Virus record (IMG/VR): IMGVR_UViG_3300024265_000032
DNA length: 64,000 bases
DNA from: a virus
Lineage: Duplodnaviria > Heunggongvirae > Uroviricota > Caudoviricetes
Strand: one strand, 5' to 3'
Made by a program: the position numbers and the translations under genes. The notes beneath the pieces are model-generated. The model was not told where the DNA came from. It saw only the letters and a list, made by a program, of their open reading frames with translations, and did not search any database. The first letter of the stretch is position 1. The number at the start of each line of letters is the position of its first letter. Shown one piece after another: positions 4,201 through 43,435 of this stretch.

Positions 4201-4215
4201 TTCGTGTACCTTCTT

Positions 4216-5290: not shown

Positions 5291-5371
5291 ATGATTTCGT
5301 TCGCAGATAACCCCTCGTTTTCCAAATCGCCCCGAGTCAATCCCGTTAGGTCGATCTCCACCGCACTTGAA

Positions 5372-6014: not shown

Positions 6015-6194
6015 TCACGGAAATCGCCTAACGTCGCTTGCTATTGTTTTCACGTCTACCAGTTCAACTTTTAGGCTCGTTGTTTTCTCCGCTGTGACTC
6101 TCAACACATGATCAACATGAAAGTCAGCAATCCGTATATCTTTTTCCTCCATTATACAAATGTCTTTCCCGTCGATGATTATGTAATATGTCAT
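6015..6194 (-). CDS. hypothetical small protein (~59 aa, MTYYIIIDGK...)
   Basis: GGAGGT RBS 9 nt upstream on minus strand. Confidence 0.4.
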   Translation of the reverse strand: MTYYIIIDGKDICIMEEKDIRIADFHVDHVLRVTAEKTTSLKVELVDVKTIASDVRRFP

Positions 6195-6829
6195 GGTGTT
6201 TAACACCTCCAAAAGCACATGACGATAGCCATCGACGAATACGACGATAGCATAAGATCGTATGACGATCACGATCAAATCTCGTACTCCCAACGCCATT
6301 TTCCCCACTCTTCCCCACACGGTGACATTGTCCTCCACACGGGTGAAAAATCACATATAGGGACCAAACGAGGCTCATATGAGGCGCGACTGTGCAGTAG
6401 GAAAAGGTGGGTTTTTGGCCCGATAAAGTCACTTTTTGTCTCGATCTACCCTATACCACCTTTACAAGGAACACAAGGAATGCAGAGCGCTCGGAAATGG
6501 GACGGACTGGGATTTGGCGCCTGGCACACAGGCACACCAAGACTGTCGATGAAAAACCCGGAAACTCTTTCTCAGAACCCCGGATAGTTTCCTCGGCGCG
6601 CTATGTTTCTATGTTGGACCTATAACGTACTGATGGTAAACCCTACGATGGTTCCCAACAAGAACATAAGCCACATGCCCACTTTCATTGACATTTCATT
6701 TCCCCTACATTGTGACGGCGATTGACACCACCACTACAACCACCGCGCCAGCCACGATCCAATCCAGGACCGTAACCATGCAGTGCATCAAACTCGTGAC
6801 ACGTTCTAGCATTTCATTTCCCCTTAAAC

Positions 6830-6902
6830 ACGGTCGGACAGGACTCGAACCTGCAACCTTCCCCCGACTGGGGATGCGCTGCCAATTGCGCCACCGACCT
6901 AG
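6830..6902 (-). tRNA. degenerate tRNA-like (Asp-like, GTC in a shortened anticodon loop); probable pseudo-tRNA
   Basis: reverse complement reads GGTCGGTGGCGCAATTGGCAGCGC...GGTTGCAGGTTCGAGTCCTGTCCGACC: canonical D-arm and T-arm (GGTTCGAGTCC) but the anticodon arm has only a 5-nt loop; T-arm region resembles the tRNA-Asp at 63262. Confidence 0.45.
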
Positions 6903-7891
6903 AAAAGACACGCGCCAACCCACCTTCACGCGCACTCAGACTATTGCGAGTTATTAGCCCGCAGTAGCTGACTCCCGACCCGTAGGTCCGTTCCTCTACT
7001 TTCTTTTGGATAACATCCAGGCAGATATAATCTGGCAATCTGTTTCTTCCCTGGATGGTTTCATGTATCCTTATTTTAACGACTATCCGAATCGAGACTG
7101 CCGCGCCAGTGCGGTTATCCAGTTTATTCGATCCGCCGTCGTGTCGTGTCGTTCGGGTGTATCCCAACTTTCCAATGACTCACAACTGCCCGCTGTGCGC
7201 CATCGAATGTGGCCTCAAGACAAGAATTGAACCGTGCCTCATATCCGACCCGCCGACCATCGGAAGTTTCAGCGAACTTCGTCCGACCATTGTGAGAGAA
7301 ATCAAAGAGGATTAGTTTACAAGACTTGCGCGAATGAGCCCCTATCCCACGACAAAAAAAGAGCCTATCACCTGACTGACGAGCGGTTTCCCGAGACGAT
7401 TCGAGAGATAGTAATACACGACAAAGACCCTTTGCTGTCTTGCTCCCACGGTGGCTGACACCCGGACCTTGCCAGACAGATAAGGAATCGTGTAGACGAA
7501 CCGTCACTTATATCCGCCCACGTCATTGACGTAGACTGAGTCTGCAATTCAGACTCTGCGTTTTGCCGCTTCTTGGACTGGCTTTTGACCGATAGCCTTG
7601 ACGATCCCGGTTCAGACCATTGACGCGCTTCCTGCGCCGTCGCCGACCGTACTGCGGAGACTACAGACCTACTCCCCAACCCATTCCGGGGATACCCGAC
7701 GCTTATCGGACTTCCCGCTGAAATTGGTTATGGGAACCGCTGACACTGATTCTAAGTGTGCCTATAACGACAGGGTGCTACCCTGACAAGCGGCTCTATC
7801 CTGACTTATGTCAGAATGTCCATCGTAAAGCGCCCCGACGATTCGAGGCGCTTCGAGTCAGACACTCTACTCGGACTGTGGACCGACGAGA

Positions 7892-8224
7892 CTAGACCTT
7901 GCCCAAATCCTTGAACGCCTTGCGCGTCGCGCCGGTTGTCGACCTGAGTCCCATAAGGGTCTCTGCGATCGTGGCCGCGTTATCGGACCCGAAACCCAGT
8001 TCACGGTCGGGGGTGTACTGACCACCCTCTACGACCTGACTTTCGAGCGATTCCCACGCTGCGGTCAGACCTGCGATGGCGTCATCGACGTTATCGTACC
8101 CCGAGCACGCATCGACAATTCGCTTGTGCTGACGATACGTGACGGCGTTTGCCAAAAACGCATCCTGACCGAACTTCTCGGACGTTCCTTGGGCATCATT
8201 CTTGACAGCGGTGTCAATGCTCAT
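7892..8224 (-). CDS. hypothetical protein (~111 aa, start MSIDT after GGGAGA)
   Basis: RBS GGGAGAAACGT-ATG; last minus-strand gene before the repeat region. Confidence 0.5.
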   Translation of the reverse strand: MSIDTAVKNDAQGTSEKFGQDAFLANAVTYRQHKRIVDACSGYDNVDDAIAGLTAAWESLESQVVEGGQYTPDRELGFGSDNAATIAETLMGLRSTTGATRKAFKDLGKV

Positions 8225-9039
8225 ACGTTTCTCCCGTATTGACTTGCCGCCCCAAGAGCCGAGACTACACCGTCCTGACTTATGGGACGGGCCTAGTAGA
8301 CTCGTTATCGGAACATCACTTATTCGGACCAACCTTGCGTCGGCCACTTATTATCGGTCCCTCGCGGGACTTCGGCTTGCGTCCGAGAATAACGAACCGG
8401 ACCTAGCGTCCGTTTTCGTTCTCTCGTTTTTCATCCTACATAATACTCTATGTAAAGTTATACAAAACGTCAAGCGCGGATTGAAAATAAATTTTCGGCC
8501 CTGAGAGCCGTCAATCGTCGATATTATCGCACTTTGTCCGATAATGCATGATTTGATTTACGTCCGCTTTTTGAGATCATTTATCGGTCAATTGCCTATA
8601 ATATCCCGTTTATCGCGCCCTAGAAGCTGATTCTTATCGGAAAGTCCTATAAGATGTGTTACGCGAGTCCTATAATGCGCGAATTATCGGCAAAAAGCGT
8701 CCTATAACCGTTAAAATCGCGATATTTTCGGTCGATTCCGATAAAAAAGCACGCCCTATAACGAAATCACGGTTAATTGGGTCAAAAACCATGATATTAT
8801 CACACGTACATAACGATTCCCGGAACGGTCCGATAATCCCGCCCCGCGCTACGTCCGATAACCCTCTGGGGGGAGGAAGGTCCGATAAGCAAGACGAGGA
8901 AGAGTCCGATAACCATTTGTCCACGAACGTCCGATAACACAGGGACCGATAACGAAAAACCCGCTTGGCCCGATAACGGGCATGGCGGTCCGATAACTGC
9001 TTTGTGGCTGGTCCGATAACCCATTCTGCGCCATACGAT

Positions 9040-9200
9040 ATTCTCGGCCCTATCCGATAAGTATTCGTGTCCACGCATACAAACCAAACTGTTATGTGCC
9101 ACGTCCGATAATCGCCCACGGCCCAACGTCCGATAATTTTCTGGTCTGCGCAAAGAAAAAGGTCCGATAATTCGGACCCCTGATCTTTTTAGTTATCACC
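9040..9200 (+). repeat. higher-order repeat copy 1 (~120-150 bp conserved core ending in near-palindrome GGTCCGATAATTCGGACC followed by T-run)
   Basis: ...aagtattcgtgtccacgcatacaaaccaaac...acgtccgataat...cggtccgataatt...gcgcaaagaaaaaggtccgataattcggacccctgatcttttt. Confidence 0.7.
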
Positions 9201-10229
9201 CCTTAAAGGATTGGTCCCATAATGTGCCGATTCGCATACTCCCGATAACCGCCACAAAGAGCGATAATCTTCCGAGTTGGAAGGACCGATAACACCCATT
9301 CCAGCGTCCCGACCGCACAGTCCGATAACTCCAAATGGTCCTGGGTATGGTCCGGTAACCTGTCTCGCAGAATTCCGTCAATTACCGGACGTTCCCACAA
9401 CGTCCCGAAGGCTGGTCCTATAATCAGGAAATCATCGGCTGTGGTCCTATATCTACACATGGTCTACTCCTTGTTATCGGCCCAAGAGGGGCGAGGTTCC
9501 GATAACCCCACCCGCTCTCCGTCCGATATTACATGCCAGCGGTTCCGATAAGCTCGCCCGGTGTCTTGATTATAGGACGACCCGAACTGATTTGGTCCCA
9601 TAATCTCAGGTCCACTTTGCCGACATTATCGGCGTCGTCAACGTCCGAAAACAACAGACAGCCGAAGTACCGATAATCGTTCGCCAGCCGTCTTTTCAGT
9701 GCTGCTTTAGCCCGATATTTCTTTGTTGCGAAGCTGCACATCCCATAAAGTGCGCTATGGAAAGGTCCGAGAACTTGGCACAACCACCCATTCTGTACTC
9801 GGACGTAGTTGTATCGGACTGTCTTTTTTCGGGCGCTCTTGAACTGGAGCACTGTGTCCGATAATACGACTCGACCTGTCTGTCCCATAACTGCCATGAT
9901 TGACTCCCGTCCTATAATTATTCCGACAATCGCCTCGCGATTATCAGACGTTCCCGCTTGCTGAACTTCCGATAACGTAATCGGGCCACCAAGCTGTTGT
10001 TAGTCCCATAACGTGCGCTCGCCCACAGGCCGAGTCCGATAAATCCATAAACTGCTACTTCAAAAGAATGCGCCATCAACCAGAGTCCGATAAAGATGAT
10101 GATCGGAAATGCGACACATCCCATTATCCATCCGATAATAATTGTCTCGCCTCCGGGCGCTTGACTATCGGATTTAACGTCCGATATTTTGCCGCTTGCC
10201 ACTAGGTCCGAATAGTCGATGAGTCCCAT

Positions 10230-10565
10230 AATTTATTCCCTTTCGTGCTTACACTGAAGTATAGGATACCTGCGCCGGAATGTCGAGCCGATAACCTATA
10301 AATCCAAAAAACTTTCTTCGTCCTATAATGTGCCCTTTTCTGTCCTGCTGCCCCATGCGTGCATTATATGCCACGCCCAATAATCCTCACGCCCCATAAC
10401 TTCGCCGCGCTACAAAACCGCGATTCTGAGCCCCAATCCGAATACTTATCGGCCACACATACGCACGCCAAACGATTACCGGCCACGTCCTATAATAACT
10501 CACGGCCCTACGGTCCGATAATGTTCTAATCGGCGCAAAAGAAAAGGGTCCGATAATTCGGACCC
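10230..10565 (+). repeat. higher-order repeat copy 2 (same core, ~1.39 kb downstream of copy 1)
   Basis: ccgaatacttatcggccacacatacgcacgccaaacgattaccggccacgtcctataat...ggcgcaaaagaaaagggtccgataattcggaccc; also shares the upstream segment cctttc..tgc(t)tcac..ac..tat.. with copy 3. Confidence 0.7.
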
Positions 10566-11669
10566 AGTGTTATTCTAGTTATCGGTCCATCGGCGAGATG
10601 GGCTCATGGTCCGAAAACAATTCGAGATGCCGAACCGCGATCGGTCCGATAATTTCTTCCCATCGTCGCTTCATGTCAGTTATCGGTCGTACCGGCTCAC
10701 CGTTGAGCGCATCCAACATTCCGATAATCTCCCGTTTTTCGGTGTTATCCAACGTCTGATAACATTCAATGGAAACCTTGTTTTGGTCCCAAAACCAATG
10801 TAGTTTCTGGACCATATGGAAACGTCCGATACCTTCCGGCTTCCTGCTGAGCCGATAATTGCCACTTGTTATCGGAGTACGAGAGTACGTCCGAATAATC
10901 GAAATCCCATGTGGAGAATAGTGAAAAACCAACATATTATCGCTCCTTGATTGCCAGTTGTGCCGTCCGATAATTCGTATGTAAACGTCCGATAGTGATT
11001 CGGTTACGCACCGTATCATGTCCGATAAGCCGTATCGAACCGGATGTAAGTGTTACTGTAACGAAGCCATCTTGTTCCGATAACGTCCTGGCGAACAGCG
11101 TCCCATAACTCATCGCCATCTGGTCCGATAAGTTAGTCTCGTGCGCCTCTGGGCAATTATCGGTCGCCGGAATCGTGATCGTTGCACGTCCCATAATATC
11201 CTCCTTTAGAACCATAGTCCGAGAACTGTGATGATAATCGTGTGTCCGATAACCATCATCCAGAATTGTTTTTCGCGTCCCATAATACTACTCCGTAAAG
11301 CACTGGAAAGAACAGTCCGGTAATCCTCGATACTGCGAATTCCGGAAATTGTTGGACCCATAACATCCGCATTGCCACCATCCTGCGATGGCTGAATTTC
11401 GGACCAAACCCTGTCCGCAATTAGGACACTTGCCCGTAGAAACGACCGATATTGCCTCGGCTTTGCATTCGGCAAGGCGTTTTTTATCACACGTAAGGCA
11501 CGTCCCAGAATAACGGCTTCTCACGCGCCCACAACGACATTTTAATCTGAGTCCCATAATTATCCCTTTCTGTGCCACTGTCCGGTAACATCGTACAGAT
11601 CGGCTGCGGTCATCGGAAGTTTAGGTCCGAAAAAAAACTCTTTGATTGTCGTCAGCAAACGTCTCATAA

Positions 11670-11905
11670 TTATCCCCTTTTTGCTTCACTACATTATACG
11701 ATTCAAAAACCAGGAAATCAAGCCCGATAACCAACTATTACAAAATTCTTTTTTCGTCCTATAACTATGGCCATGGCTAGCCGTCAGCCCCGAAACGTCG
11801 TTATTACAGGGACCGTCTTATAAGTATTCACGTACACGACCACAGACCAAACGATTACCCGGACCGTCCGATAATGCCCTCACGGCGGTCCGATAACTAC
11901 TACTC
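11670..11905 (+). repeat. higher-order repeat copy 3 (partial)
   Basis: cgtcttataagtattcacgtacacgaccacagaccaaacgattacccggaccgtccgataatgccctcacggcggtccgataac; ~1.36 kb after copy 2. Confidence 0.65.
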
Positions 11906-13032
11906 TACTGCTGAACGTCTGATAACTAGATGAGAGAGAGAAGGTCTGATAACTAGAACTGTCGCTGCGAGGTGTTGGTCTGATAACTACTGCTGCTTGG
12001 TAGTCCGATAACCTCACGATACTGGCAAACGCAAAGGGCCGATAACTCGACCCCATTCGGCGCGTCGTCTTTGTTATAGGACGCAATGGAAAGCGTCCGA
12101 TACTGCTATGCCGTACTGGCACGTCTCATAACTTGGCCAGTTTATCGGAAGTCTAGGAGCATGGTCGTAATTATCGGTCGTTTCTACGATGTCGGCGTCG
12201 ATGTCCGATAACCATTTCAGAAAGTCTGATAACCAAATGGTTGGAATTACTGCATACTCGGACCACCACTTATCGGAACCGCAAACCTCTTCGGCGATCT
12301 TGGTCCGATATTTCACAAATGTCATTTGCATGTTATTGGCCCATCCCATAACAGTTGTTGTTATCGGAGCACACGAAGTGGCCACTGTTCGGTCCGATAA
12401 CTCCGATGCCTTCGGCGGTCCGATAAAGTTTTAGGTCACATCCGGATGTTAGTCCGATAAGAGCCAGGATCACGAGTCGTCCGATAATCTTCATTTCGAT
12501 TCTTCGCTCGTTGCGAGGTTATGTCCGATAACTCTAGCCACCGATGGCTGCTTGAATTTCGGACGTTACATGAGAGAAGAGTCCCATAACTTTAGAAACA
12601 ACGACCCAACCGATAGTGGCCGTCACTGCGAGTCCGATAAGTTTGGTGGTCATGGCTTTGCCTTTCGTTCGTTTGGTGTCTCTATCCTATCTACATGATA
12701 GCATTAGTTATACCGAATAGCAAGAGAAAAGGAAAAGAATCTTTTGGTCCGATAACTCGCCTTGCTCGTCGAGCAAGCAAGGTCTGATAACAAGCTGATA
12801 GCATAGTCTGATAACAAAAGGAAGGTACTAGTCCGATAACGGAACTCGGTTGGGGGTCGCCCGGAAATATGGATAGGTCCGATAACTCGGGTGGGTCCGA
12901 TAACCCATGGGGGTTTAGGCACAACAGGGTCAAAAAAGCCAGAGCCTACAACTTTTCGTGTACATGATATCTAACCCAGAGCCCATTCGCTTTACCCCAT
13001 ACACTTTTTTCCCAAAAAAAATCGAAGACACT

Positions 13033-27649: not shown

Positions 27650-28249
27650 CTACGTATCACGAGAATCCCACACCACCTTAAAGGTAGGAGTGTTTACTAT
27701 GTCGTCAGCAACTACTGTTATTCGGCCAAATCGTTTCTTGCCTTCGATATATCCTGGATAGCAATGAGCAACAAGTTCGGTGCAGCTAAATCTCGATGTC
27801 TCATTAAAGTCAAAAGCGAAATCGTATTCGCTGCCGATGGCTGCTTTGGCCCGTTTGGTTGCTTCTTCTTGTAGGCCCTCTGGAGTTCTCAGAACGATCA
27901 GATGGTCCGTCCGCATGAAATCAATGAGATCGTCGACCACAACCCCATCGCTGATGGAGTGAACCACCTTGTGTTGTTTGCCCTCAATTTCTCCGACATA
28001 CATTCCTGCGTGATTCCACCAGCCGGGGATGAGCCACTTGTCGACATACCCCTCGAATCTGCGGATTAGGATGTCTCCAGGCTGGATAATATGGTCTAGG
28101 TCTCTGTAATGTTTCCCTTTGAGCCGGAAAGTGTTGGCATTGATTGTGAACCAAAATGGATGCAGGATTCCGTTCCATTTGATGTCTCCGATAAAACGAA
28201 AGATAGCCTTTTCTAGTTTGAAGAGCAAACTTTCTTTCACATTGACCAA
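27650..28249 (-). CDS. permuted papain-like (YiiX/DUF830-type) hydrolase candidate
   Basis: His (WNHAGMYVG) precedes Cys (SRFSCTELVAH), the permuted order of YaeF/YiiX/LRAT-type thiol hydrolases. Confidence 0.45.
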   Translation of the reverse strand: MVNVKESLLFKLEKAIFRFIGDIKWNGILHPFWFTINANTFRLKGKHYRDLDHIIQPGDILIRRFEGYVDKWLIPGWWNHAGMYVGEIEGKQHKVVHSISDGVVVDDLIDFMRTDHLIVLRTPEGLQEEATKRAKAAIGSEYDFAFDFNETSRFSCTELVAHCYPGYIEGKKRFGRITVVADDIVNTPTFKVVWDSRDT

Positions 28250-28410
28250 CCCCTTTAGAGTTCTTTTCTGATGAAACTAACGACACCATACAAAAATGTG
28301 AGAACCATCGCAACTATCATACCCTGCGCCACTAATGATCCAGTATAAACCACACAAGCTAACATAACAATCCCCCCTTTTTGGAAAGAAACAACATACT
28401 TACCATAATC

Positions 28411-28845
28411 TTATACACCGTAGTCCGTGGCCAGATTTTCGTATTTATCAGGGTCTTCATCCGCCTGTCTGTGGCATTCAGCACACAGATACAGCAAAAA
28501 GAAGGGTCTGGAGTGATCTGGGTGGTGTCCTTGGATGTTTTTTTCGGACATGCAAAGTTCGCATTCATCTAGTGGGACGAGTTTCCCCGTTTTTACAGCC
28601 TGACGGACAAGGTATCGGGCGTGTTCCTTTTCGGGGAATTTTTCCTTGTCTCTTCTGGTTTGTTCTGCATTCGGGGTTGAAGGGTCACATCGGCGGTTTT
28701 CATTGGTCAGCTTGGAAGCGCATGATCGTGAACAGGTGTGTTTTTGTCCTATCTTTACGGTCTGTTTGATGCGACTTTCTTCTTTTTCGAAAGGTTCCCT
28801 ACACCATTCACAATTAACCGTTCGGGTATCGACCATTATTGCCAT
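28411..28845 (-). CDS. HNH-like Zn-finger nuclease candidate (144 aa)
   Basis: CEWCR...CSRSC...ECELCMSEKNIQGHHPDHSRPF..LCAECH. Confidence 0.5.
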   Translation of the reverse strand: MAIMVDTRTVNCEWCREPFEKEESRIKQTVKIGQKHTCSRSCASKLTNENRRCDPSTPNAEQTRRDKEKFPEKEHARYLVRQAVKTGKLVPLDECELCMSEKNIQGHHPDHSRPFFLLYLCAECHRQADEDPDKYENLATDYGV

Positions 28846-29759
28846 GCTTTCAAATTACGTTGGGCATATCGGTCTTTATAGATTATAGCCCTTGGGTTTG
28901 ACAGAACGGCATCTGCAATGATTTCATTGTACAGAGTGTGAATTTGGTTAACTGGTGGTTTATCAGGTAGATCACTACCTTTCTCTGCATTGTTGGCGTC
29001 GAGTTTAGCGTATTCGTAGAGCGTAGATACTTCATCCAAATTCAATTCACCCTGCTTTATAGATAAAAGCAATTCTGCGCGAGGACAAGGAAATGTAATG
29101 TTACCTGTGTCCATGAGTTCTTTGAGTTGATCAAGCAATCTGATTGTATGACACGCGCTGGAAGTACAATAACCATGCAACTTTATTTGTTTTTTCCGCT
29201 TAGCACCCAGTTTGCGATTTGTCTTGCGAGTTTCCATTTGATGATTCATAAATAAAAGACGTATGATTTCATCCATCGATTCTTTCCCTGGATGAAATAC
29301 TTGTCGTATGTTCTCGACCACTGTATCTTCATTGGATGTTCTCTTGATAGGGACGAGTTGAGTACCCGTGACTTTTCTCCATTCTGATTCTGCATATCCC
29401 CCGATGCGTCTGGCAAATTGCTTACATGCAAATAATGATCTGTTACGAAGAACAGTACCTCCAACATCTGTTCGCTCAATGATATTTGGCTCGGGTGCAA
29501 ATAGAATTTCATAGCATAATGGATCGCCGCTAATTAGAAGTTCGAAAAATCGTTTGAGAGAATATATCACGATATCTGGTTCTCTAATGACTTTTTGCTC
29601 GAATCGAGCTAAGCCAGCAAGATACTCGAAAGGGGGTATAGTGAATCCTCGATAGTCGTGATCACTTTCTTGCGTTTTGGTACCGTACAATCTAGACCCA
29701 GCCATTACGAGAAAATCTGGATTGTCGATACTGCGAGTGAGTTCTGCTTCTTTGTTCAT
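28836..29759 (-). CDS. Pol-beta superfamily nucleotidyltransferase (PF10127/RlaP-like candidate)
   Basis: MAGSRLYGTKTQESDHDYRGF = hG[GS]...DhD nucleotidyltransferase motif. Confidence 0.55.
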   Translation of the reverse strand: MNKEAELTRSIDNPDFLVMAGSRLYGTKTQESDHDYRGFTIPPFEYLAGLARFEQKVIREPDIVIYSLKRFFELLISGDPLCYEILFAPEPNIIERTDVGGTVLRNRSLFACKQFARRIGGYAESEWRKVTGTQLVPIKRTSNEDTVVENIRQVFHPGKESMDEIIRLLFMNHQMETRKTNRKLGAKRKKQIKLHGYCTSSACHTIRLLDQLKELMDTGNITFPCPRAELLLSIKQGELNLDEVSTLYEYAKLDANNAEKGSDLPDKPPVNQIHTLYNEIIADAVLSNPRAIIYKDRYAQRNLKAWQ

Positions 29760-30112
29760 ACGATTTTCAACTTATCCATCAACGACTCTACTTTAGCTAT
29801 ACACTGGTTGTGATCTTCTATGAACATTTCCATGAAATCTTCGGGGTTCAGCGGTGCTGGAGATTCATAGTTGTAGTCGATGAATTTGGCTTCTGGCAGA
29901 ATACAAACAATAAATTTTTTTATGACCGAGATTTGGCGACAGGGAAGCACACCTATATTCAAATGCTTTACGGGAGATTGCATATTATTTGCTTTAGCGA
30001 ATTCTTCAGCAGCAATATACACCTTTTCGATTGCGGCGAAAGTGGTTCTTGTTTTCCATCTAGACAGAAGAAAGTTCAACAGTTGTCTGCGGTTCTTTTT
30101 TGTTACTATCAC
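29756..30112 (-). CDS. hypothetical protein (118 aa)
   Basis: ORF track. Confidence 0.5.
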   Translation of the reverse strand: MIVTKKNRRQLLNFLLSRWKTRTTFAAIEKVYIAAEEFAKANNMQSPVKHLNIGVLPCRQISVIKKFIVCILPEAKFIDYNYESPAPLNPEDFMEMFIEDHNQCIAKVESLMDKLKIV

Positions 30113-30133
30113 TTTTTTGTTCTCCTTAATATG

Positions 30134-30544
30134 CTAATGCTGGTATAATAGATAAGATACGTACATAAGACATTCTGCCAAGAACGGAGCCAAACTTTGT
30201 CCTATTGTGTGGATTTCCGCGACAGTGAACCATCCTATTCCTACTATATCCACACAAGCGGGTTTGAGTTCCCCATCCCACATGTTACACAAAAAAATAT
30301 GCGTATTGTATTGTCCTACACGCAATGTATGTAGCAGCTTGAAATTGTGTCCGTTAAGATTGGTTTCTTCTTTGAGTTCTCTGGCGGCGGCGTTGGCAAG
30401 TGTCTTGTCTTCTGGATTAACTTTTCCTCCAGGGAAGCACCATGTTCCCCCCGATACATCATCGACCGATCTTTGTATTAGGAGAAAACGGTTTTTGCTT
30501 TTTAGAACAACCCAGACAACCTCGATCACATCTTCCCCTTTCAA
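30134..30544 (-). CDS. NUDIX hydrolase (MutT-like)
   Basis: Nudix box GGKVNPEDKTLANAAARELKEETNL. Confidence 0.8.
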   Translation of the reverse strand: MKGEDVIEVVWVVLKSKNRFLLIQRSVDDVSGGTWCFPGGKVNPEDKTLANAAARELKEETNLNGHNFKLLHTLRVGQYNTHIFLCNMWDGELKPACVDIVGIGWFTVAEIHTIGQSLAPFLAECLMYVSYLLYQH

Positions 30545-30581
30545 TAATAGAGGGATTCCATGGTATTATACACCGACTGTT

Positions 30582-31079
30582 CTATTTCCACGTTTTTCTA
30601 GTAACAATTTCTGATATACGATTTTGCGTAGTAGCAAAGTCATTGGCAATGGATTGTTGTGTTTCTCCATTCGCGTATCGAGAACGTATTGAGTCAATAT
30701 CTGTTTGTGTGAATCTAGCTCTGCCATGTTTTTCTTTTGTACACATAGTCCCGTGTATTTTTTTGTCATCGGAATTGTCTTGGGATGTACCCCATCGAAG
30801 ATTGTTTGGTAAATTGTTTGATCTATTTCCATCGAGATGACGAGATACCATTCCGATAGCACATGGTCCATGGAAAGCACAACAAATCAATCGATGGACT
30901 TTTAAGGATCGCCTATGTCCGTTACATCGAACCCTAATTATCATATATCCATCTTTGTCAGCATGTTGAACTAATTTTTTCAGTTGTCCATTACGACAAA
31001 TGCGATAGATATTGCCTTTATTATCTACTCTACATTGGGGAAAATCGGGAATAATTTGTAGGTTAGCGATCATCACCAT
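30582..31079 (-). CDS. HNH homing endonuclease (HNH_3/AP2-type)
   Basis: YMIIRV...KVHRLICCAFHG...VSRHLDGNRSNNLPNNLRWGTSQDN. Confidence 0.75.
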   Translation of the reverse strand: MVMIANLQIIPDFPQCRVDNKGNIYRICRNGQLKKLVQHADKDGYMIIRVRCNGHRRSLKVHRLICCAFHGPCAIGMVSRHLDGNRSNNLPNNLRWGTSQDNSDDKKIHGTMCTKEKHGRARFTQTDIDSIRSRYANGETQQSIANDFATTQNRISEIVTRKTWK

Positions 31080-31647
31080 CGCCCTTCAGCTTGCCTCTTT
31101 CTTGACGACTTAGCAATTTTTCTATGTTGCCAGTGTAAACATTTTCCAGGGTGCAGTTGCACCTGATAGCAAATTCTTCGATGCACGCAAGAACCTTTGT
31201 CACGTTATGAGCTATAGCTACGAATCTGCTGCGTTCTCCCAAGTGACAAGCATAATCGTAATACCATGATTCAAGTGCTTCTGCGACAAGTGATGCGCAT
31301 CTGTTCATATACAGCACCAATTGTGGCCACTCCATCAAGCGAACTTTCTGTGTTTGCGAACTGTTTTTCATTTCGTAGCACATTTGTAGATCACAGTCCG
31401 TATCAGAACAAAGATTCGACAAATACCAACAACAATCCCCCAATTCCTTCCTGATAGCCTCTTTCCTCTTGTCGGTCAATTTACCGTTGTCATCACGGTA
31501 AAGCTTCTTGACTTTTTCCGCTACTTCACCACACTCTCCTACGAGTCCTAGTCCTGGGTAGATCATGGATATATCTACATCGTAATCTTCTCCTGTGTGA
31601 TAAACGGCAGTCGACCTAGCTTTCTCTTGGTATTCTCTAAGATTCAT
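31063..31647 (-). CDS. MazG-like nucleoside triphosphate pyrophosphohydrolase
   Basis: YPGLGLVGECGEVAEKVKK and ELGDCCWYL (EExxE/ELGDxLW MazG motifs). Confidence 0.7.
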   Translation of the reverse strand: MNLREYQEKARSTAVYHTGEDYDVDISMIYPGLGLVGECGEVAEKVKKLYRDDNGKLTDKRKEAIRKELGDCCWYLSNLCSDTDCDLQMCYEMKNSSQTQKVRLMEWPQLVLYMNRCASLVAEALESWYYDYACHLGERSRFVAIAHNVTKVLACIEEFAIRCNCTLENVYTGNIEKLLSRQERGKLKGDGDDR

Positions 31648-32353
31648 TATCTTCCTCCTGGAGTAATTCTGTTTCTTTTGGGACCATATTCAAGATGTCG
31701 GCTACGAACTGTATGTTCGGAGACAACACAACAAATGCTTCTTTGGGGGGTATCCCTAACTGCTTGGATGCAATCTTGGCAGATTCAGCCAACTTCGGGG
31801 CCATAGCTCTTATTGAAGCCATAGCTCGGCCTATCGGATCGGTTATTTCAATATCCTGAAAACGATATCGCTTAATTCTAATGCCTAATTCCTTACATAT
31901 CTCAGTGATTTTTGAACCTATCGCTTCCTCTACTGTGCTACTATCGTTGACTAAATCATCAAATGGAACCGTGGTGACAATGTGTCTGATTGCAGCTTCG
32001 CAAGCCTCGATCATGAACTGATCGGAATCTTCGGTAAAGGTAAGATACTTCATGAGATTGGTGATTCTGTAAATCACAACACCTCTTATGCGAACAGAAA
32101 GACCATCCTCTGTCAAGACGTACATTGATTCTGCTATGCCGAGGTTTGTTTGGACATGTCGTTTTTCGATTGTCTGTCCTGTTGTGCCGAAATGAATTCC
32201 CGATTCCAAATCTTTGCTTGGTTTTCCGAAGGTAAATCGAATAGCCGACCATCCAGGGATAACTATCGCCCATTTAATTGGACAAATCCAAACGATTGGG
32301 GCTATCAACAAGTTTTCGATCATAGCCATTATTCGAGTTAGCAATTCACTCAT
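31637..32353 (-). CDS. SPFH/band-7 (stomatin/prohibitin-like) domain protein with N-terminal TM
   Basis: N-terminal hydrophobic segment then SVRIRGVVIYRITN...KYLTF core typical of SPFH. Confidence 0.6.
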   Translation of the reverse strand: MSELLTRIMAMIENLLIAPIVWICPIKWAIVIPGWSAIRFTFGKPSKDLESGIHFGTTGQTIEKRHVQTNLGIAESMYVLTEDGLSVRIRGVVIYRITNLMKYLTFTEDSDQFMIEACEAAIRHIVTTVPFDDLVNDSSTVEEAIGSKITEICKELGIRIKRYRFQDIEITDPIGRAMASIRAMAPKLAESAKIASKQLGIPPKEAFVVLSPNIQFVADILNMVPKETELLQEEDNES

Positions 32354-32583: not shown

Positions 32584-32937
32584 TCACATATGATCTTTCT
32601 GAAGAATAACCCTGCCAATTTTTTCCACGACAACGACAAAATGCGAATGATAAAGGTCGATAAAGTCTGCGATAGTCCATGAAAAGCCATTCATAATCTC
32701 CGGTTCACTACGTATCAAATCCGCCCACTTGGGTAATTCTACACACAATTCATTCTGGATTTTTTGTTGTCGTTCGTATGTCTCGAAATCAAAAACGACA
32801 GGCTTTCCCGATGTTCTTCTGATTCGTCTCTTCAAACCATCAACCTGTTTCCCAGCTTTTTTTATGCAAGCCTTTTTGCTATCGTCAATCAATTCGATCC
32901 ACTGTGCAAGAAGTTCTTTGACTACAACTTTGTTCAC
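32584..32937 (-). CDS. hypothetical protein (117 aa)
   Basis: ORF track; preferred over overlapping 32358..32690. Confidence 0.4.
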   Translation of the reverse strand: MNKVVVKELLAQWIELIDDSKKACIKKAGKQVDGLKRRIRRTSGKPVVFDFETYERQQKIQNELCVELPKWADLIRSEPEIMNGFSWTIADFIDLYHSHFVVVVEKIGRVILQKDHM

Positions 32938-33656
32938 TTCAAGTCCTCCAAAAAGTCAATATCACCACCTGTTTCGTCCAGCTTCTTTCTGATGTCTTTT
33001 ATCTGACCAAAAATTTGTTTTGAGTTGTCGGCGATCTTATCCGGGGATGAATCGACAAAAGTCAATTCCCAAAATATGCTGGTAATCAGACACCAGAGTG
33101 TTGGATCGATTCTTAGGCTGAATCCTGTTCTGTGAAAACTTTTCTCATCTTGTATAAATGGTGGACAAAAATGAACGATTGGCGAGACGCGAATAGGAAG
33201 GTGTGCAAGGTCGTTGACGGGGGTGAACTCTATCCCATACCCTCTGGTTTCTGGGCATTTGCAGGGTTCATCTTCGCAAACACATCCGGGTCCGACTCCA
33301 TGGAAACCCATAAGACCCGATAGTTCACTTTTTGTGGGGTCTTCCCAACTTAAATCATCCTTCATGTCGCACTCTGATTTCCAGTAGAGTTCGAGATATT
33401 CTGGTTGGACTATAGCATTGGGGTCTCTGTTTTTATTGATCTGGGTCCAGAATGAATCGAAGTCTTCCATACCAAAGATTTTGGCAATTCCTGGGGTTAT
33501 TCTTTCTGCCAACGCGATGAGTTTGAACACGTCATAGAGAGTAAAGTCATGTGCAATCTTTGTGACACTCCACTGAAAATCACTTGGTCTGAAGTCATCT
33601 CTATGGTATTGTTTGGTCAGATGTATGCCGAACGACGCAGGATTATGCTCTGGCAT
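32934..33656 (-). CDS. hypothetical protein (240 aa) with CxC/CKC cluster
   Basis: ORF track; ATGA overlap with downstream. Confidence 0.55.
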   Translation of the reverse strand: MPEHNPASFGIHLTKQYHRDDFRPSDFQWSVTKIAHDFTLYDVFKLIALAERITPGIAKIFGMEDFDSFWTQINKNRDPNAIVQPEYLELYWKSECDMKDDLSWEDPTKSELSGLMGFHGVGPGCVCEDEPCKCPETRGYGIEFTPVNDLAHLPIRVSPIVHFCPPFIQDEKSFHRTGFSLRIDPTLWCLITSIFWELTFVDSSPDKIADNSKQIFGQIKDIRKKLDETGGDIDFLEDLK

Positions 33657-34362: not shown

Positions 34363-34499
34363 ACTGTGATCTCCAGAGAAATATTCCTACATACTATTAT
34401 ACGTCAGGTAGGGGCTTGTGTCCCAAAAAAAAGATAAAAAAAACCGAGCGCTTTTACCAAAATGTGCTGTCTATATATATGGAGGGGTGTTTTTATCGG

Positions 34500-34521: not shown

Positions 34522-34710
34522 GTGATGAAAATGAGTGATGAGAAAAACAAGATTGATTGTCGACTGAAGGCCACTGGAACAAGTAAGGCTGACGCGAAGG
34601 TCGTCAAAGACTTGTCTGTCCCTGATCCAGAACCAGCAGTTGGGAAAAAAATTCTTGACGAACTGACTGAAGAGGAATCAAAGGATGACGCAAGATCAAA
34701 GAATTCTTAA
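34522..34710 (+). CDS. hypothetical acidic protein (62 aa)
   Basis: ORF track. Confidence 0.45.
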   Translation: MMKMSDEKNKIDCRLKATGTSKADAKVVKDLSVPDPEPAVGKKILDELTEEESKDDARSKNS

Positions 34711-35272
34711 TGAAGCATATCCCATAATTGAGAAGATAGCAAAATCTCGTAGTAGCAATGGTGCATTCGCGTATTATTGTAACGACGACATAAGACAAGA
34801 AGTATGGTGCATGTGCTTGGAAGCGATGGATCGATACGATCCAAAGGTTGGTCCTATAGAAAACTACTTGGCAAGACATGTGGCTAACCGTATCAAAAAT
34901 CTGAAAAGAGACAAATATTTCCGTCCTGGATCAGATGTACCAAGTTCTGGGTTCGCACGAATCAGAATGAATCTTATTAATGCACTTCCTCTTGGCGGTG
35001 GAGATATTGCTGACCAAGGAACCCTCTTGTGTGGCACGCCCATCAGTTGTGATCCAATAAACTACATATTGTGTGAAGATGATCCAATAAACTACATCTT
35101 GTGTGAAGAAACTTTTGTATATATCAAGGAAAGACTGCCAGAGGATTTACTTTTGCCGTTCGAAGCATTGGTGGGCAACAATAAGGTTCGCAGTCAAGTT
35201 ACCGATCTTGTCAGAAAACATGTTATTGACATTCTAAGAGAAAGGGAAGAAGATGGCGGAAACGAAGAATAA
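34685..35272 (+). CDS. sigma-70-family (ECF-like region 2) factor candidate; contains 30-bp tandem duplication
   Basis: DIRQEVWCMCLEAMDRYDP..GPIENYLARHVANRIKNLKRDKY; tandem DPINYILCED/DPINYILCEE at ~35045-35105. Confidence 0.5.
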   Translation: MTQDQRILNEAYPIIEKIAKSRSSNGAFAYYCNDDIRQEVWCMCLEAMDRYDPKVGPIENYLARHVANRIKNLKRDKYFRPGSDVPSSGFARIRMNLINALPLGGGDIADQGTLLCGTPISCDPINYILCEDDPINYILCEETFVYIKERLPEDLLLPFEALVGNNKVRSQVTDLVRKHVIDILREREEDGGNEE

Positions 35273-38576: not shown

Positions 38577-39109
38577 TTTTACCCACATACACCGTCATCA
38601 GAGATACTCGTGAGCAGAAGGATCACGGATGGACGTTTCCTGCGCATCATCCGAATAGAAGACCGCCAAAGTGTGACGGGACAATTAGCGAAAAGTTGGA
38701 TACCGGAGACTATAGTATGGTAGGATATACCGACATATTCTCCATTGAGAGAAAGGCTGATTTTGCAGAACTTTGGCAGAATTACAGCAGCCAGAAGAGG
38801 CCAGCTTTTGAGGCAGAAATGAAACGCATGTCTCATATTAAACACAGATTCATTATTGTTGAATCGCTGTACACTCCAGATATCATGGAGTTATCTCCAC
38901 CGCAGTTTACGAAGGGTGTTCCTGGGAAATCTTTCGTCAGATGGTTGATGTACATATCTGTTAAGTATAATGTCAACATTATCCCAGCGGGGGCTTGTGG
39001 GAGAAAGATCGCACAAATGCTTTGTGAAGAAGTTGTGCGTGTGACTAAGGATCGTTGGGTTCTACAGGAACCAAAAAGCAAGGATCAGGAGGATTGTCTT
39101 GGTAACTAG
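38564..39109 (+). CDS. ERCC4 (XPF/Mus81/Hef)-type nuclease candidate
   Basis: IRDTREQ ... LDTGDY ... SIERKADFAEL = D-x-RE / GDY / ERKxxxD nuclease motifs. Confidence 0.5.
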   Translation: MSRLILPTYTVIRDTREQKDHGWTFPAHHPNRRPPKCDGTISEKLDTGDYSMVGYTDIFSIERKADFAELWQNYSSQKRPAFEAEMKRMSHIKHRFIIVESLYTPDIMELSPPQFTKGVPGKSFVRWLMYISVKYNVNIIPAGACGRKIAQMLCEEVVRVTKDRWVLQEPKSKDQEDCLGN

Positions 39110-41228
39110 TGCAAAATCGAATTCAGTCGTTAAAACAAAGGTGACCTTGGATGATTTGCTTCATGGTGATCAAGGCAAATTTGGACACATGTTCCCTTTT
39201 CGCGATCGTGTACCAGATATTGCTGATCATATCTTTACAGACCTGAAGAAGTCAAAGATACCATTGGATGAATTTGTAATCGACAAGATGTTGAATATTG
39301 ACTATATTGGTTGGACAGCAAAGGTGATGTTGAATCTCGATTTATTCCCTATTCAAATTGCAACTCTTCAGATCATGTGGAATACTCCATTCCCTATGTT
39401 GATAGCTTGTCGAGGTGGCAGTAAGACATTCATGCTTGCTGTGTATGCGCTTTTGCGAGCCGTATTTGATCCAGGTACTAAGATAGTGATTGTTGGTGCT
39501 GGTCTTAGACAGGCTCGATTGGTATTCAACGAAATAGAAGGTATTTGGAATCGATCTCCGATGCTAAGAGCAATTGTTGGTGGTGGCAAAAAGGCTGGAC
39601 CACGACAGAATGTAGACCTTTGTTATTTTCGCATTGGAGAATCTATCATCTACGCCTTGCCTATGGGTGATGGCACAAAGATTAGAGGTTTCCGTGCGAA
39701 TGTTGTTATTGCTGATGAGTTTGCTTCTATACCCGAAGATGTATTTGATATTGTTGTCCGTGGTTTTGCAGCTACCGCTAAGACCCCAGTAGAAGAAGCG
39801 AGGAAGAGGGCTTTTGACGCGAAGCTCGCCCAGCTTGATATACCATCAGACATAAGGAAGAAGCTAGTCACAGATGACGGAAAGATGCATGGTAATCAAA
39901 TTGTTTATTCAGGTACTGCATATTATGCTTTCAATCACTTCTGCAAGAAGTATGAAATGTGGCAAGAGATCATAAAGAGCCAGGGTGATCCAGAGTTAGT
40001 ATCACAGATTTTTGGTGGTGAGAATATGGTACCTGATGGTTTCAGTTATAAAGACTATGCTATCATTAGAATTCCCCACACTCATCTGCCAATAGGATTG
40101 TTGGATGATAGACAGTTAGCTCACGCCAAAGCTACGCTTCCAAGGAACATTTACTTGATGGAGTACGGTGCTGTTTTCGTGAAGGATTCCGATGGATTCT
40201 ATCCAAGAAGTCTGGTGGAGGGATGTACTGTCGGACCGAACAAACCAATTGCGACTCCAGATGGTGATGTAACATTTACACCATACATGAGAGCAGAATC
40301 AAAGCGTACATACGTAGTTGGTATTGATCCTGCTGCCGAACGAGATAACTTGGCTATAGTCGTGATAGAAGTACGTGCTAATCATTACCGAGTGATACAT
40401 TGTTGGGTTGTCAACAAAAAAGAATTCACGAACAGGAAGAAGCGCGGACTTATTACGGACGATGACTATTATGCATATTGTTGTTCTCGGATACGAGAAA
40501 TTGTGAGATTATTTAATCCTATTCGCATAGAGATGGATAGTCAGGGTGGTGGATATGCTGTTGCAGAGATGTTGCGGAACAAGAAATTGTTGGACATTAA
40601 AGATGGAGATTTCCCAATCTATGAAGTCATAGATTTTGACGAGCCTAAGTCTACGGATGGAGAAACTGACGGGCGGCATATTTTGCATCTGGTACAACAG
40701 AGTACGGAATTCAACCAGAATGCCAACATAGCGCTTCACAAAAGTCTTGAAACTCGCTCCCTTTTGTTTCCAGCTTTTGACAGCGTAAAAATGTATGCAG
40801 CAATTGAAGCGGAAAAATCGATGGGTGTTGTGTTTGACACATACGAGGATTGTGTGTTTAATATAGAGGAACTGAAAAACGAACTTTGCACCATCCAAAT
40901 GACCGAAACTGCTACTGGCAAGGAAAGATTTGATACACCACAAGTAATTCAGCACGGTGTTGTCGAAGGTCGTTTACGAAAGGGTAGATTGAAAAAAGAC
41001 AGGTACACTGCACTTCTTCTGGCTCACAAATACATTTATGACGAAAGTATCTCCGAAGGTGAAGAGATAGATTACAACGATGTGGCTGGAAACATCGAAA
41101 AACGTTCCAAGACGCCAGATAAAGACGAGCCTATGTACCGGGGTCCAGGTCTTGGTCGAATGCATAATGCACAAGGGGCTCGTGGCGGGGGTCTTTTCAA
41201 AGCCGTGAAGCGTGGTAAGCGTCTCTAG
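39099..41228 (+). CDS. terL: terminase large subunit
   Basis: Walker A-like ACRGGSKTFM, Walker B VVIADEFASI, C-terminal RNaseH-like nuclease VVGIDPAAERDNLAIVVIE; followed by portal. Confidence 0.85.
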   Translation: MVTSAKSNSVVKTKVTLDDLLHGDQGKFGHMFPFRDRVPDIADHIFTDLKKSKIPLDEFVIDKMLNIDYIGWTAKVMLNLDLFPIQIATLQIMWNTPFPMLIACRGGSKTFMLAVYALLRAVFDPGTKIVIVGAGLRQARLVFNEIEGIWNRSPMLRAIVGGGKKAGPRQNVDLCYFRIGESIIYALPMGDGTKIRGFRANVVIADEFASIPEDVFDIVVRGFAATAKTPVEEARKRAFDAKLAQLDIPSDIRKKLVTDDGKMHGNQIVYSGTAYYAFNHFCKKYEMWQEIIKSQGDPELVSQIFGGENMVPDGFSYKDYAIIRIPHTHLPIGLLDDRQLAHAKATLPRNIYLMEYGAVFVKDSDGFYPRSLVEGCTVGPNKPIATPDGDVTFTPYMRAESKRTYVVGIDPAAERDNLAIVVIEVRANHYRVIHCWVVNKKEFTNRKKRGLITDDDYYAYCCSRIREIVRLFNPIRIEMDSQGGGYAVAEMLRNKKLLDIKDGDFPIYEVIDFDEPKSTDGETDGRHILHLVQQSTEFNQNANIALHKSLETRSLLFPAFDSVKMYAAIEAEKSMGVVFDTYEDCVFNIEELKNELCTIQMTETATGKERFDTPQVIQHGVVEGRLRKGRLKKDRYTALLLAHKYIYDESISEGEEIDYNDVAGNIEKRSKTPDKDEPMYRGPGLGRMHNAQGARGGGLFKAVKRGKRL

Positions 41229-41296: not shown

Positions 41297-43435
41297 ATGG
41301 CAAAGAAAAGTCCTGTTAAAAAAACCAAAACTCCTGTTCAGGATCATCTCTACACACAGGGTGTTGGCGGAATAAGGGATTACATCCTTCCAGATACATG
41401 CCATTTGAACAAAGGTATTCCACAGAGAGCAATAGCGGCAGATGTAAATAAGCGATCAGGACACAATAGGCACAATTACGATACACAACGTCCAAACGAT
41501 AAGTTGCCGGTTAAGCACAATGAAATTATTCTCGCATGTCAGTCTGTCTATCGTAAGGTGGGTATGGTTCGTAATATCATAGACCTGATGACAGATTTTG
41601 CAGCAGAAGGACTAGAATTACAGCATACGACCAAAAGTCAAGAAAGATTTTATCGAGAGTGGGCCAGGAAAGTGAATCTAAATGGTAGGGCTCACGACTA
41701 CATGAAGCTTTTGATGAGAGATGCGAATGTCATTGTCCGTCGACAAAATGCACTCATCTCCAGACCGGTTATCAAGGAGATGTCGAAGGCTGACGCTTCT
41801 GTTAATCCTATTGGTTTGGTAGACGAAACATTTGTACCAGAAAAGCCACAAAAAATCACCAAACTCAACAAGAAAACAAATCGTAGAGAGATTCCATGGA
41901 AATACACTTTTCTTTCTCCTGTCGTCATAGAGAAGATTGGTGGAGAGCTTGGTCGGTTTTTTGGTTCTGATACTCTCGGTATGCGGATACCAACGGCATT
42001 GCGGAATTCGATAAGGGCTCCAAAAACCAAGGCGGAAAAAGCGTATGTCAGTGAACTTCCGCCAGAAGTTGTTCGCGCAGCGAAGAAAACCGGCGGTCTT
42101 GTCAAGCTGGATATGGATAAGATTCATGTCGATTATTACAAGAAAGACGACTGGGAAGAATGGGGTACTCCATTTCTGTACGGCGTTCTTGAAGACGTGA
42201 TGTTCAAGGAAAAAATGCGTCTTGCTGATATGGCAGCACTCGACGGAGTGATTAATGTCATTCGTTTGTGGAAATTGGGCAATTCAGATCAGCAAATTCT
42301 TCCTACGCCAGCAGCGGTTGATAAGCTTATCGATATTCTTCAGCACAATGTCGGCGGCGGGGTTATGGACCTTGTGTGGGACGACATGATTGATCTTCAT
42401 GTTGAATACCCTCCTACCGACAAGATTCTTGGACCAGACAAATATATCAGTGTCAATAGTGACATTGTTCGCGGCATAGGTATTCCAGACTCTCTTATTG
42501 GAGGCGCTGACCTTGGAACACGTAATGCTCAGTCCGCATTTGTGCAACTAAAAACACTGGTAGAAAGGCTTGAATATGTCCGAAGTCGGGCTATAAGATG
42601 GATGCAAAACGAACTTCGTCTGGTGGCCAACGCCATGGGATTCAAAAAGATTCCAGCAATAAGTTTCGGTGTTATGTCATTGCGAGACGAAGCAGCAGAA
42701 AAGCAGTTGATGATTCAACTACTGGATCGCGGTATAATTTCGTCAGAGAAGGTTTCTGAAGCGTTTGGAACGAACTTTATGATAGAACTTGAAAGACTGA
42801 AGTTGGAGCAAGCATTCAGAGAAGAAAACCCAGGTGTCTTGGAACGATCCGATCCATACAACCGCCCATTTACGATGCTAGAAAAACAAAACGAACTAGC
42901 CATCAAGCTTGAAAAGGTTAAGATCAATGGTAAGAATGTTGATGGTGGAGATAATGGTGGTGGAGATAATCCCAGTGGAGATCAGCCGAGAAATGATGGC
43001 AATAATTCACCAGGAAGACCGCCGTCAACAAAAGACACTGCCCCAAGAGACGAACGAACGCCAAAGACACAATCTGTTCTAATGGTTGTAGCTGATAGTT
43101 TTCTGGATCAAATCGGAGAGTTGGTAGATGGTCCGTATATGAAACAATGGAAGATAAGGGGCAGACGATCTCTGACGAAAGCAAGGAAAGATGAGTTGGA
43201 GCGAGTTAAGCGTGGTATCTTGTCCGTCTTGCGTCCCGGAGATACGGTAACTAAGAAGCTAATAGCCGAAAGACTTGAGATGAGTGTTGCCACACGAAAC
43301 AGTTCTCGTCAAATGGAAAGTAATTTTGGTGATCTTGTAGAGTATTTTACATCATCTACGAAAAAGACACCGAATACTAAAGAGCGCAGATCATTAACTA
43401 TTATGGCATGGGCTGCTGTAGTGCCTATCAACTAA
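41297..43435 (+). CDS. portal protein (candidate)
   Basis: 712 aa immediately after terL; Gly/Asn/Asp-rich C-terminal region. Confidence 0.6.
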   Translation: MAKKSPVKKTKTPVQDHLYTQGVGGIRDYILPDTCHLNKGIPQRAIAADVNKRSGHNRHNYDTQRPNDKLPVKHNEIILACQSVYRKVGMVRNIIDLMTDFAAEGLELQHTTKSQERFYREWARKVNLNGRAHDYMKLLMRDANVIVRRQNALISRPVIKEMSKADASVNPIGLVDETFVPEKPQKITKLNKKTNRREIPWKYTFLSPVVIEKIGGELGRFFGSDTLGMRIPTALRNSIRAPKTKAEKAYVSELPPEVVRAAKKTGGLVKLDMDKIHVDYYKKDDWEEWGTPFLYGVLEDVMFKEKMRLADMAALDGVINVIRLWKLGNSDQQILPTPAAVDKLIDILQHNVGGGVMDLVWDDMIDLHVEYPPTDKILGPDKYISVNSDIVRGIGIPDSLIGGADLGTRNAQSAFVQLKTLVERLEYVRSRAIRWMQNELRLVANAMGFKKIPAISFGVMSLRDEAAEKQLMIQLLDRGIISSEKVSEAFGTNFMIELERLKLEQAFREENPGVLERSDPYNRPFTMLEKQNELAIKLEKVKINGKNVDGGDNGGGDNPSGDQPRNDGNNSPGRPPSTKDTAPRDERTPKTQSVLMVVADSFLDQIGELVDGPYMKQWKIRGRRSLTKARKDELERVKRGILSVLRPGDTVTKKLIAERLEMSVATRNSSRQMESNFGDLVEYFTSSTKKTPNTKERRSLTIMAWAAVVPIN

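Follow-up and report, generated by a model that had tools for sequence, protein, structure and literature searches.

SPFH proteins are found across every domain of life, and cryo-electron microscopy has recently revealed them as membrane-attached cages; their bacterial roles are debated. C-terminal elements make up both the cap and the wall seen in the SPFH cages solved so far. The slipins (such as PH1511 of Pyrococcus and QmcA/YbbK of E. coli) and human stomatin share an N-terminal hydrophobic anchor, the SPFH1 and SPFH2 parts, a 'RAMA' motif and a helix, in this order. The classic operon partner of the slipins is NfeD, which is common but not universal. Phage SPFH proteins have been annotated for twenty years, and their role is not established. 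Here we describe an SPFH/Band 7 gene (31637..32353, minus strand) in the DNA of a virus of the Caudoviricetes, IMG/VR record IMGVR_UViG_3300024265_000032. The whole stretch analysed, 64,000 nucleotides (nt) of a genome of about 130 kb, is called the window below. The product has the same order of parts as the slipins and stomatin, with its membrane anchor a predicted one; what is new is that it represents a divergent, compact and cap-less clade.

Band 7 matches in T4-like phages (ORFs of RB43, 44RR and Aeh1) have appeared in papers since 2006 (PMC1524935). In the Vi01-like phage PhiSH19, the SPFH gene adjoins a superinfection-exclusion gene (PMC3220722); in Kayvirus, the MbpS gene lies among the lysis genes (PMC7150955). 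The stomatin-like protein of Alteromonas phage V22 was termed a 'class II AMG' (auxiliary metabolic gene; PMC7289586). On the bacterial side, an SPFH protein of B. subtilis serves as the membrane tether of the phage-shock protein PspA (PMC8581546). A 2026 paper stated explicitly that the reason for the SPFH proteins of phages is not known (PMC13239085), and no functional study of viral SPFH proteins turned up in the literature searched.

The gene is a complete open reading frame (ORF) with exact coordinates, which encodes 238 amino acids (aa) from an ATG start codon. This ATG is the first start codon below the upstream in-frame stop, which is only three codons away, and the start methionine is common to all relatives in the alignment. 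Pfam Band_7 (PF01145) matched residues 31-180 with a score of 66.4 bits (E 4.4e-18), where the gathering score is 23.6, and the same family was present in 29 of 29 close homologues. A preliminary description of the window, made from the letters alone, had named an SPFH/band-7 protein at this position; the Band_7 match bears this out and the fold agrees. It had also spoken of a phage copy, and the window does carry phage genes, including the large terminase (39099-41228, 709 aa), the portal (41297-43435), a topoisomerase-like gene, an RNA ligase and others. The ratio of nonsynonymous to synonymous substitution rates (dN/dS) among the relatives was 0.06-0.22 (Nei-Gojobori method, pairs with unsaturated dS), and the gene is under purifying selection. 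The product is a stomatin-like (slipin-like) SPFH/Band 7 protein.

The structure was modelled with AlphaFold2 (AF2) on an alignment of 46 sequences, including distant relatives from an exhaustive hidden Markov model (HMM) search. The predicted local distance difference test score (pLDDT) was 89.5, and the predicted template modelling score (pTM) was 0.74. This model superseded an earlier and weaker one built on 25 close homologues (pLDDT 65.8), in which SPFH1 was unmodelled. The modelled elements follow the order given in Table 1, with the first helix at residues 2-23; only the acidic tail is marked there as a low-confidence part. A Foldseek search of the PDB gave 92 matches at E <= 0.001, and the best 50 of these 92 were SPFH-family or vault chains. 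The top matches were chains of the human stomatin 16-mer cage (E 2.6e-16), followed by prohibitin, HflK, erlin and QmcA. The SPFH core superposed on the SPFH domains of the archaeal PH stomatin and mouse stomatin with a root-mean-square deviation (rmsd) of 0.9-1.5 Å. The family profile also ranked stomatin first among the PDB sequences (4e-38), followed by PH stomatin (1.7e-32), QmcA (3e-25), HflK (2.4e-19), HflC (7.6e-12) and flotillin (2e-8).

For the comparison of the C-terminal end, the query and 96 cellular slipins were placed in one alignment with the family profile. Past the RAM motif, 62 residues remain in the phage clade against a median of 82 in the 96 slipins, a difference of about 20 residues. 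In the slipins, this part comprises a coiled-coil stretch with 'AEGE', a helix with 'ALHLRTLQ' and, at its end, the motif 'NTI[VI]F.[LV]P.E.L'. Both the 'AEGE' stretch and the terminal 'NTIVF.LP.(D/E).L' motif were absent from the query and its relatives in this alignment, whereas the terminal 'NTIVF.LP' motif was present in the six cellular slipins inspected at their C-terminal ends. When the profile is aligned to human stomatin, there is a 12-residue gap, and the alignment stops short of the stomatin 'STIVFPLPIDML' segment. The helix that follows SPFH2 is present, but it is short relative to the slipin coiled coil, and residues 171-216 are a shortened counterpart of the coiled-coil wall of stomatin. 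At the other end, the phage clade is about 11 residues longer than the slipins ahead of SPFH1, and its N-terminal segment begins with an amphipathic stretch. The oligomerisation of human stomatin needs the cap motif, which the phage protein lacks.

The conserved ending of the acidic tail, 'QEE.DES*', is dual-coded: it shares nucleotides with the Shine-Dalgarno sequence AGGAGG (31654-31659) of the overlapping MazG-like gene and with that gene's start, ATG-AAT-CTT (from 31647). The sequence of this junction is conserved in three related loci (L001, L007 and L008), so the tail may be conserved for reasons other than the function of the SPFH protein.

The nearest cellular proteins were annotated as 'slipin family protein', with a length of 244-266 aa and 20-26% identity to the query. 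They were found with a broad alignment that holds three slipin-like outliers, in a search dominated by cellular slipins. The phage protein is also similar in length to the slipins (238 against about 245-255 aa). It differs from the slipins and stomatin in being phage-encoded, in its low identity (18-26%), and in that no NfeD partner gene was found. NfeD was unmatched among the SPFH neighbours and the few predicted membrane proteins in the 64 kb of the window, and also among the called neighbours in L001, L004 and L007. The HflK and HflC proteins have the same SPFH superfamily fold, and their profiles gave weak but significant matches: the HflK equivalog TIGR01933 scored 43.1 bits (E 3.3e-11) against a cut-off of 159.4, and PRK10930 scored 26.6 against 660 bits. 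However, HflK has 419 aa and HflK/C are encoded by paired genes, whereas the phage protein is far shorter, is encoded by a single gene and has the opposite predicted topology. No second SPFH gene was found in the window when all six-frame ORFs were searched with the family profile by hmmsearch (next best E 0.81). By these sequence comparisons, the phage protein is assigned to the stomatin type, not to the HflK/C type. The analogy with HflKC-FtsH drawn in the preliminary description is weakened, since stomatin, PH stomatin and QmcA are nearer, the HflK equivalog failed, and the gene is single with the opposite predicted topology.

Among the viral homologues, the query had no match in PHROGs at E <= 0.01, including phrog_200, a phage SPFH family labelled 'lipoprotein'. 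When ten relatives were tested singly, two matched phrog_200: P0031, a true relative (E 7e-4), and P0089, a slipin-like outlier (E 2.5e-16). The window protein and its true relatives are thus placed, as judged from their sequences, in a rare clade apart from phrog_200. The earlier-annotated phage SPFH proteins have the Band 7 fold in common with it; their matches in BFVD (E 1e-9 to 1e-14) included proteins of Rhizobium phage Pasto, Streptomyces phage StarPlatinum and Vibrio phage pVa5. The best viral structural matches in BFVD were the SPFH proteins of giant viruses (Pandoravirus, Tupanvirus and Fadolivirus; E 7.6e-17 to 3.5e-13). These belong to eukaryotic viruses, are longer (258-391 aa), and share only 15-17% identity with the phage protein. 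The giant-virus and phage SPFH proteins are most likely independent acquisitions.

The close homologues formed 29 clusters with 55-94% identity, each of about 238 aa and all metagenomic. An exhaustive HMM search of 1.84 billion representatives returned 55 sequences at E <= 1e-10 and 1,125 at E <= 0.001, which indicates a rare and divergent branch. A pattern scan with the close-homologue alignment found four IMG/VR viral loci and no relative of the family in 185,579 species genomes. This absence suggests a lytic phage, and the phage carrying the gene is probably lytic. No match was found by megablast of the 7 kb around the gene against GenBank phages, or by tblastn of the protein against 50,697 GenBank phage records at 1e-3. 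The nearest terminases of cultured phages (Bacillus and Microcystis phages) are only about 25% identical to that of the window, and the matches of the topoisomerase-like gene were scattered over unrelated phages, with no pointer to the host.

The preliminary description had also placed a transmembrane (TM) segment at the N-terminus. A hydrophobic segment does exist there (residues 8-26), and its Kyte-Doolittle mean over 19 residues is about 2.0 in every family member, above the usual TM threshold; as a TM helix, however, it is marginal. In the alignment, P19 and P25 of the N-terminal helix are invariant, and E13 and W22 are near-invariant. Residues 1-14 are amphipathic, with a hydrophobic moment (muH) of about 0.55. 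The anchor could cross the membrane as a TM helix, dip into it as a stomatin-like re-entrant hairpin or lie in its plane. Across 25 family members, the mean number of positive charges is 0.84 in the N-terminal flank and 3.4 after the helix; by the positive-inside rule, this bias predicts that the SPFH domain faces the cytoplasm. The SPFH domains of QmcA and stomatin are cytoplasmic, whereas those of HflK/C are periplasmic.

The gene lies in a leftward operon, on the strand opposite to the structural genes. In the contigs with relatives of 82%, 62% and 61% identity (one of 132.8 kb), the shared order starts with a DNA methylase, followed by one to three genes that are small or variable and then by SPFH, MazG and NUDIX. 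This methylase-SPFH-MazG-NUDIX block is divergent from a sigma-like gene, a glycosyltransferase, an epimerase and the terminase. Since the same neighbours persist down to about 60% identity, the SPFH gene is a conserved gene of the lineage and not a floating accessory gene. The accessory island of the preliminary description was therefore not upheld; the gene is a syntenic member of the leftward operon in every relative examined, from 94% to about 60% identity. The variable neighbours in this region are an HNH endonuclease gene (30582-31079) and a 240-aa gene (32934-33656), each missing in some relatives. A virion or structural role was rejected from the position of the gene, in a leftward operon of nucleotide enzymes on the strand opposite to the terminase, portal and structural genes. 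No holin, endolysin or superinfection-exclusion (Sie)-like gene adjoins the SPFH gene, and no other membrane protein is encoded nearby. PADLOC gave no match at E <= 1 for the SPFH protein and four neighbours.

The overlap of the SPFH and MazG-like genes (Table 1) is kept in L001 and L007, and the corresponding overlap in L004 is 26 nt. Translation of the MazG-like gene is probably coupled to the SPFH gene, as judged from this arrangement. In the more distant loci L012 and L013 (about 30-34% identity), the gene downstream of SPFH is unrelated to MazG (BLASTP E 0.048 and 9.5; Pfam MazG unmatched), and these loci are still phage-like, with DUF4406, PD-(D/E)XK and dGTP diphosphohydrolase genes. 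As the pairing is lost there, the MazG-like gene is a syntenic neighbour but no obligate partner of SPFH, and their adjacency reflects a gene order inherited in one lineage.

Table 1. Parts of the SPFH/Band 7 gene and adjoining features, with their positions in the window (KD, Kyte-Doolittle scale; Hessa, Hessa scale).
Feature	Position	Strand	Evidence
SPFH/Band 7 gene, 238 aa	31637..32353	-	ORF; Band_7 66.4 bits; AF2 pLDDT 89.5; Foldseek best match stomatin; dN/dS 0.06-0.22
N-terminal helix, predicted membrane anchor, residues 2-26	32276..32350	-	AF2; KD; Hessa; muH; charge bias; invariant columns
SPFH1 (strands 27-80) and SPFH2 (86-170) core, residues 27-170	31844..32275	-	Pfam; AF2; rmsd
'GRAMA' motif, Ala/Ser-rich helix 173-199, short helix 203-210 and conserved 'LSPNIQF', residues 171-216	31706..31843	-	AF2; profile alignment
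Acidic tail, residues 217-238 and stop	31637..31705	-	low confidence, AF2 pLDDT 60-68; conserved junction sequence
MazG-like pyrophosphohydrolase gene, 11-nt overlap with the SPFH gene	31063..31647 (ATG 31645-31647)	-	Pfam MazG 30.6 bits; phrog_229
Best sigma-70-like promoter match, GGGACA-17-TATAAT, 10/12	34396..34424	-	upstream of the methylase gene heading the SPFH operon; weak

These results favour a stand-alone, membrane-anchored SPFH protein of the stomatin type that forms a ring and fences off a patch of membrane; we give this model as a whole a probability of roughly 0.55. The protein would be made early or midway in infection, before or alongside the replication functions. Its N-terminal helix would hold it on the host inner membrane at the cytoplasmic face, and the SPFH domain would lie in the cytoplasm, as those of QmcA and stomatin do. 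Self-association through the SPFH domains and the Ala-rich helix might then form a ring around a membrane patch. As there is neither a cap motif nor an NfeD partner, an open or shallow ring would be expected instead of the closed dome of the solved SPFH cages. The ring may sequester a membrane client or shield it, and a host protease, a channel or a membrane-acting defence effector would be examples of such a client; alternatively, it might stabilise the membrane during infection.

Several points weigh against this model. The missing cap motif means that the protein may not form rings unaided. The N-terminal segment is marginal as a TM helix: its summed Hessa scale is +4.4 kcal/mol, because E13, N14, P19 and P25 are conserved within it, and the hydrophobic helix contains three prolines in all; the protein could instead be recruited as a soluble SPFH protein. 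The early or middle timing is read from gene order only. The region contains 16 promoter-like sites against a shuffled expectation of 18.2, and the scan for promoters and terminators was not above chance. In addition, no client or partner of the protein was identified here.

The alternatives differ mainly in what the protein would act on. It might serve the state of the membrane itself, in superinfection exclusion, in the timing of lysis, or by countering membrane-depolarising abortive-infection effectors. The SPFH genes of other phages, beside a superinfection-exclusion gene in PhiSH19 (PMC3220722) or among lysis genes in Kayvirus (MbpS; PMC7150955), are in line with such a role, as is the tethering of PspA in B. 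subtilis (PMC8581546). The present gene, however, has nucleotide and DNA enzymes as neighbours, not a holin, an endolysin, a Sie-like gene or another membrane protein; PADLOC was unmatched, and the SPFH proteins of the other phages belong to a different family (phrog_200). This explanation is rather unlikely. An HflK/C-like modulator that cages or regulates the host FtsH, and so protects phage proteins or steers the decision between lysis and lysogeny, has slightly less to recommend it and is considered unlikely. It would draw on the common superfamily and the weak matches to TIGR01933 (E 3.3e-11) and to the HflK chains in the PDB, and E. coli QmcA, the closer relative, is also linked to the quality control of membrane proteins. 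Nevertheless, the equivalog score of 43.1 bits is far below the cut-off of 159.4, and HflK and HflC are outscored by each of stomatin, PH stomatin and QmcA. No HflC-like partner of the single gene was found in the window, and the predicted cytoplasmic orientation is opposite to that of the periplasmic HflK/C SPFH domains. The pattern scan, with no copy of the family in cellular genomes, also argues against a temperate life with a lambda-like CII/FtsH decision.

Another possibility is that the cap-less protein is a 'poison subunit' or decoy, which co-assembles or competes with the slipin/QmcA-NfeD cage of the host and disables it. The absence of a C-terminal cap or oligomerisation motif, a coiled coil shorter than in the 96 cellular slipins, and the lack of an NfeD partner in the phage window would fit such a subunit; with only 20-26% identity to cellular slipins, however, conserved hetero-interfaces are unlikely, and the idea is doubtful. 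The pair of overlapping genes could also be read as a two-gene module with the MazG-like pyrophosphohydrolase, for example for membrane-localised hydrolysis of nucleotides or alarmones. The window, L001, L007 and L008 all share the 11-nt overlap in which the MazG Shine-Dalgarno sequence lies inside the SPFH tail. An SPFH-MazG functional module was nevertheless rejected, since the gene downstream of SPFH in L012 and L013 is unrelated to MazG, and a two-gene module is highly improbable.

The protein may manipulate the membrane proteostasis of the host or a membrane-associated defence, as the preliminary description suggested. A bolder version, which we consider unlikely to be right, is that the clade is a minimal, cap-less stomatin used as an anti-host tool: its open rings might trap a host inner-membrane protein, e.g. 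a quality-control protease or a membrane-acting abortive-infection effector, or it might poison the slipin/NfeD cage of the host. If true, this would be the first mechanistically defined role of a viral SPFH protein, and a natural SPFH assembly without a dome cap. Phages have acquired SPFH proteins repeatedly; as a well-conserved and unusually compact variant, this clade could be used as a minimal model for the assembly of SPFH rings, and it offers a possible way into the question of what SPFH proteins bring to phages. This value is limited, since the phage has not been cultured, the host is not assigned, and the sequence points to no specific client; by itself, the clade does not make the question of viral SPFH function more testable.

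Several other observations were made around the SPFH gene. Only in the window does the HNH endonuclease gene (HNH_3, phrog_59; 30582-31079, minus strand) separate MazG from NUDIX. L001, L004 and L007 have no such gene there, a pattern that suggests a recent insertion of a homing endonuclease. The 240-aa gene (32934-33656, minus strand) has no Pfam or PHROG match and occupies a variable slot between the methylase gene and a 117-aa gene; L004 and L007 lack it, and in L001 its place is taken by two different genes, of 213 and 252 aa. A small Cys-rich ORF, which was not called as a gene (32358 to about 32590, minus strand), ends 4 nt ahead of the SPFH start. It contains four conserved Cys pairs, C-D-[TA]-C-G ... 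C-I-C-E-x-C ... C-P-x-C-[FY]-G-K ... C-x-x-C, and judging by this pattern its product is probably a double zinc ribbon; it had no Pfam match. The ORF is conserved at the amino-acid level in L007, L008, L004 and L010, where it falls in gaps between the gene calls, and is missing in the L001/L003 lineage. Its start is uncertain, since the 3' end of the 117-aa gene is read from the same DNA in a different frame.

Downstream of the SPFH gene, the minus strand of 27650-31647 encodes the MazG-like protein, the NUDIX protein, a nucleotidyltransferase of the RlaP family (phrog_388), an endonuclease (phrog_2340) and a C92 permuted-papain amidase. This cluster of enzymes directed at nucleotides and RNA could act in the depletion of nucleotide signals or in RNA repair during infection. 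On the plus strand, a 195-aa protein (34685-35272) gave a borderline match to Sigma70_r2 (23.9 bits against a cut-off of 24), and its counterparts in the relatives gave faint or weak matches to the same family. The gene heads the rightward operon, in which an epimerase (phrog_540) precedes the terminase; the counterparts of this operon in the relatives include a glycosyltransferase. The domain match makes a phage-encoded sigma factor possible. The terminase of the window is free of inteins (709 aa); whereas the large gene at the terminase position in the relatives (L001 1-2566; L004/L005 1-2528) contains one or two inteins with LAGLIDADG domains (1073 and 1517 aa).

A full-length transfer-messenger RNA (tmRNA) gene was found at 60432-60782 (plus strand), with the tag peptide GESQFRMAA* in ARAGORN and a match to RF00023 over model positions 1-374 (137.4 bits against 47). 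A 22-nt pattern from its 3' end had no exact match in the 185,579 species genomes. A tRNA cluster (63090-63335, plus strand) lies just downstream of the tmRNA gene, in which tRNA-Phe and tRNA-Asp were confirmed by Rfam. Two further calls, of an odd 93-nt 'tRNA-Ala(cgc)' (63165-63257) and of another tRNA-Asp (6830-6900, minus strand), came from ARAGORN only and were below the Rfam threshold. The region 1-12500 of the window has a GC content of 0.47-0.51, against about 0.43, and a negative GC skew; its ORFs are all short (<=170 aa) and lie mostly on the minus strand. Reassignment of a stop codon was ruled out as the reason for these short ORFs, since no single reassignment opens clean long frames; the region is therefore probably a block of small early genes.

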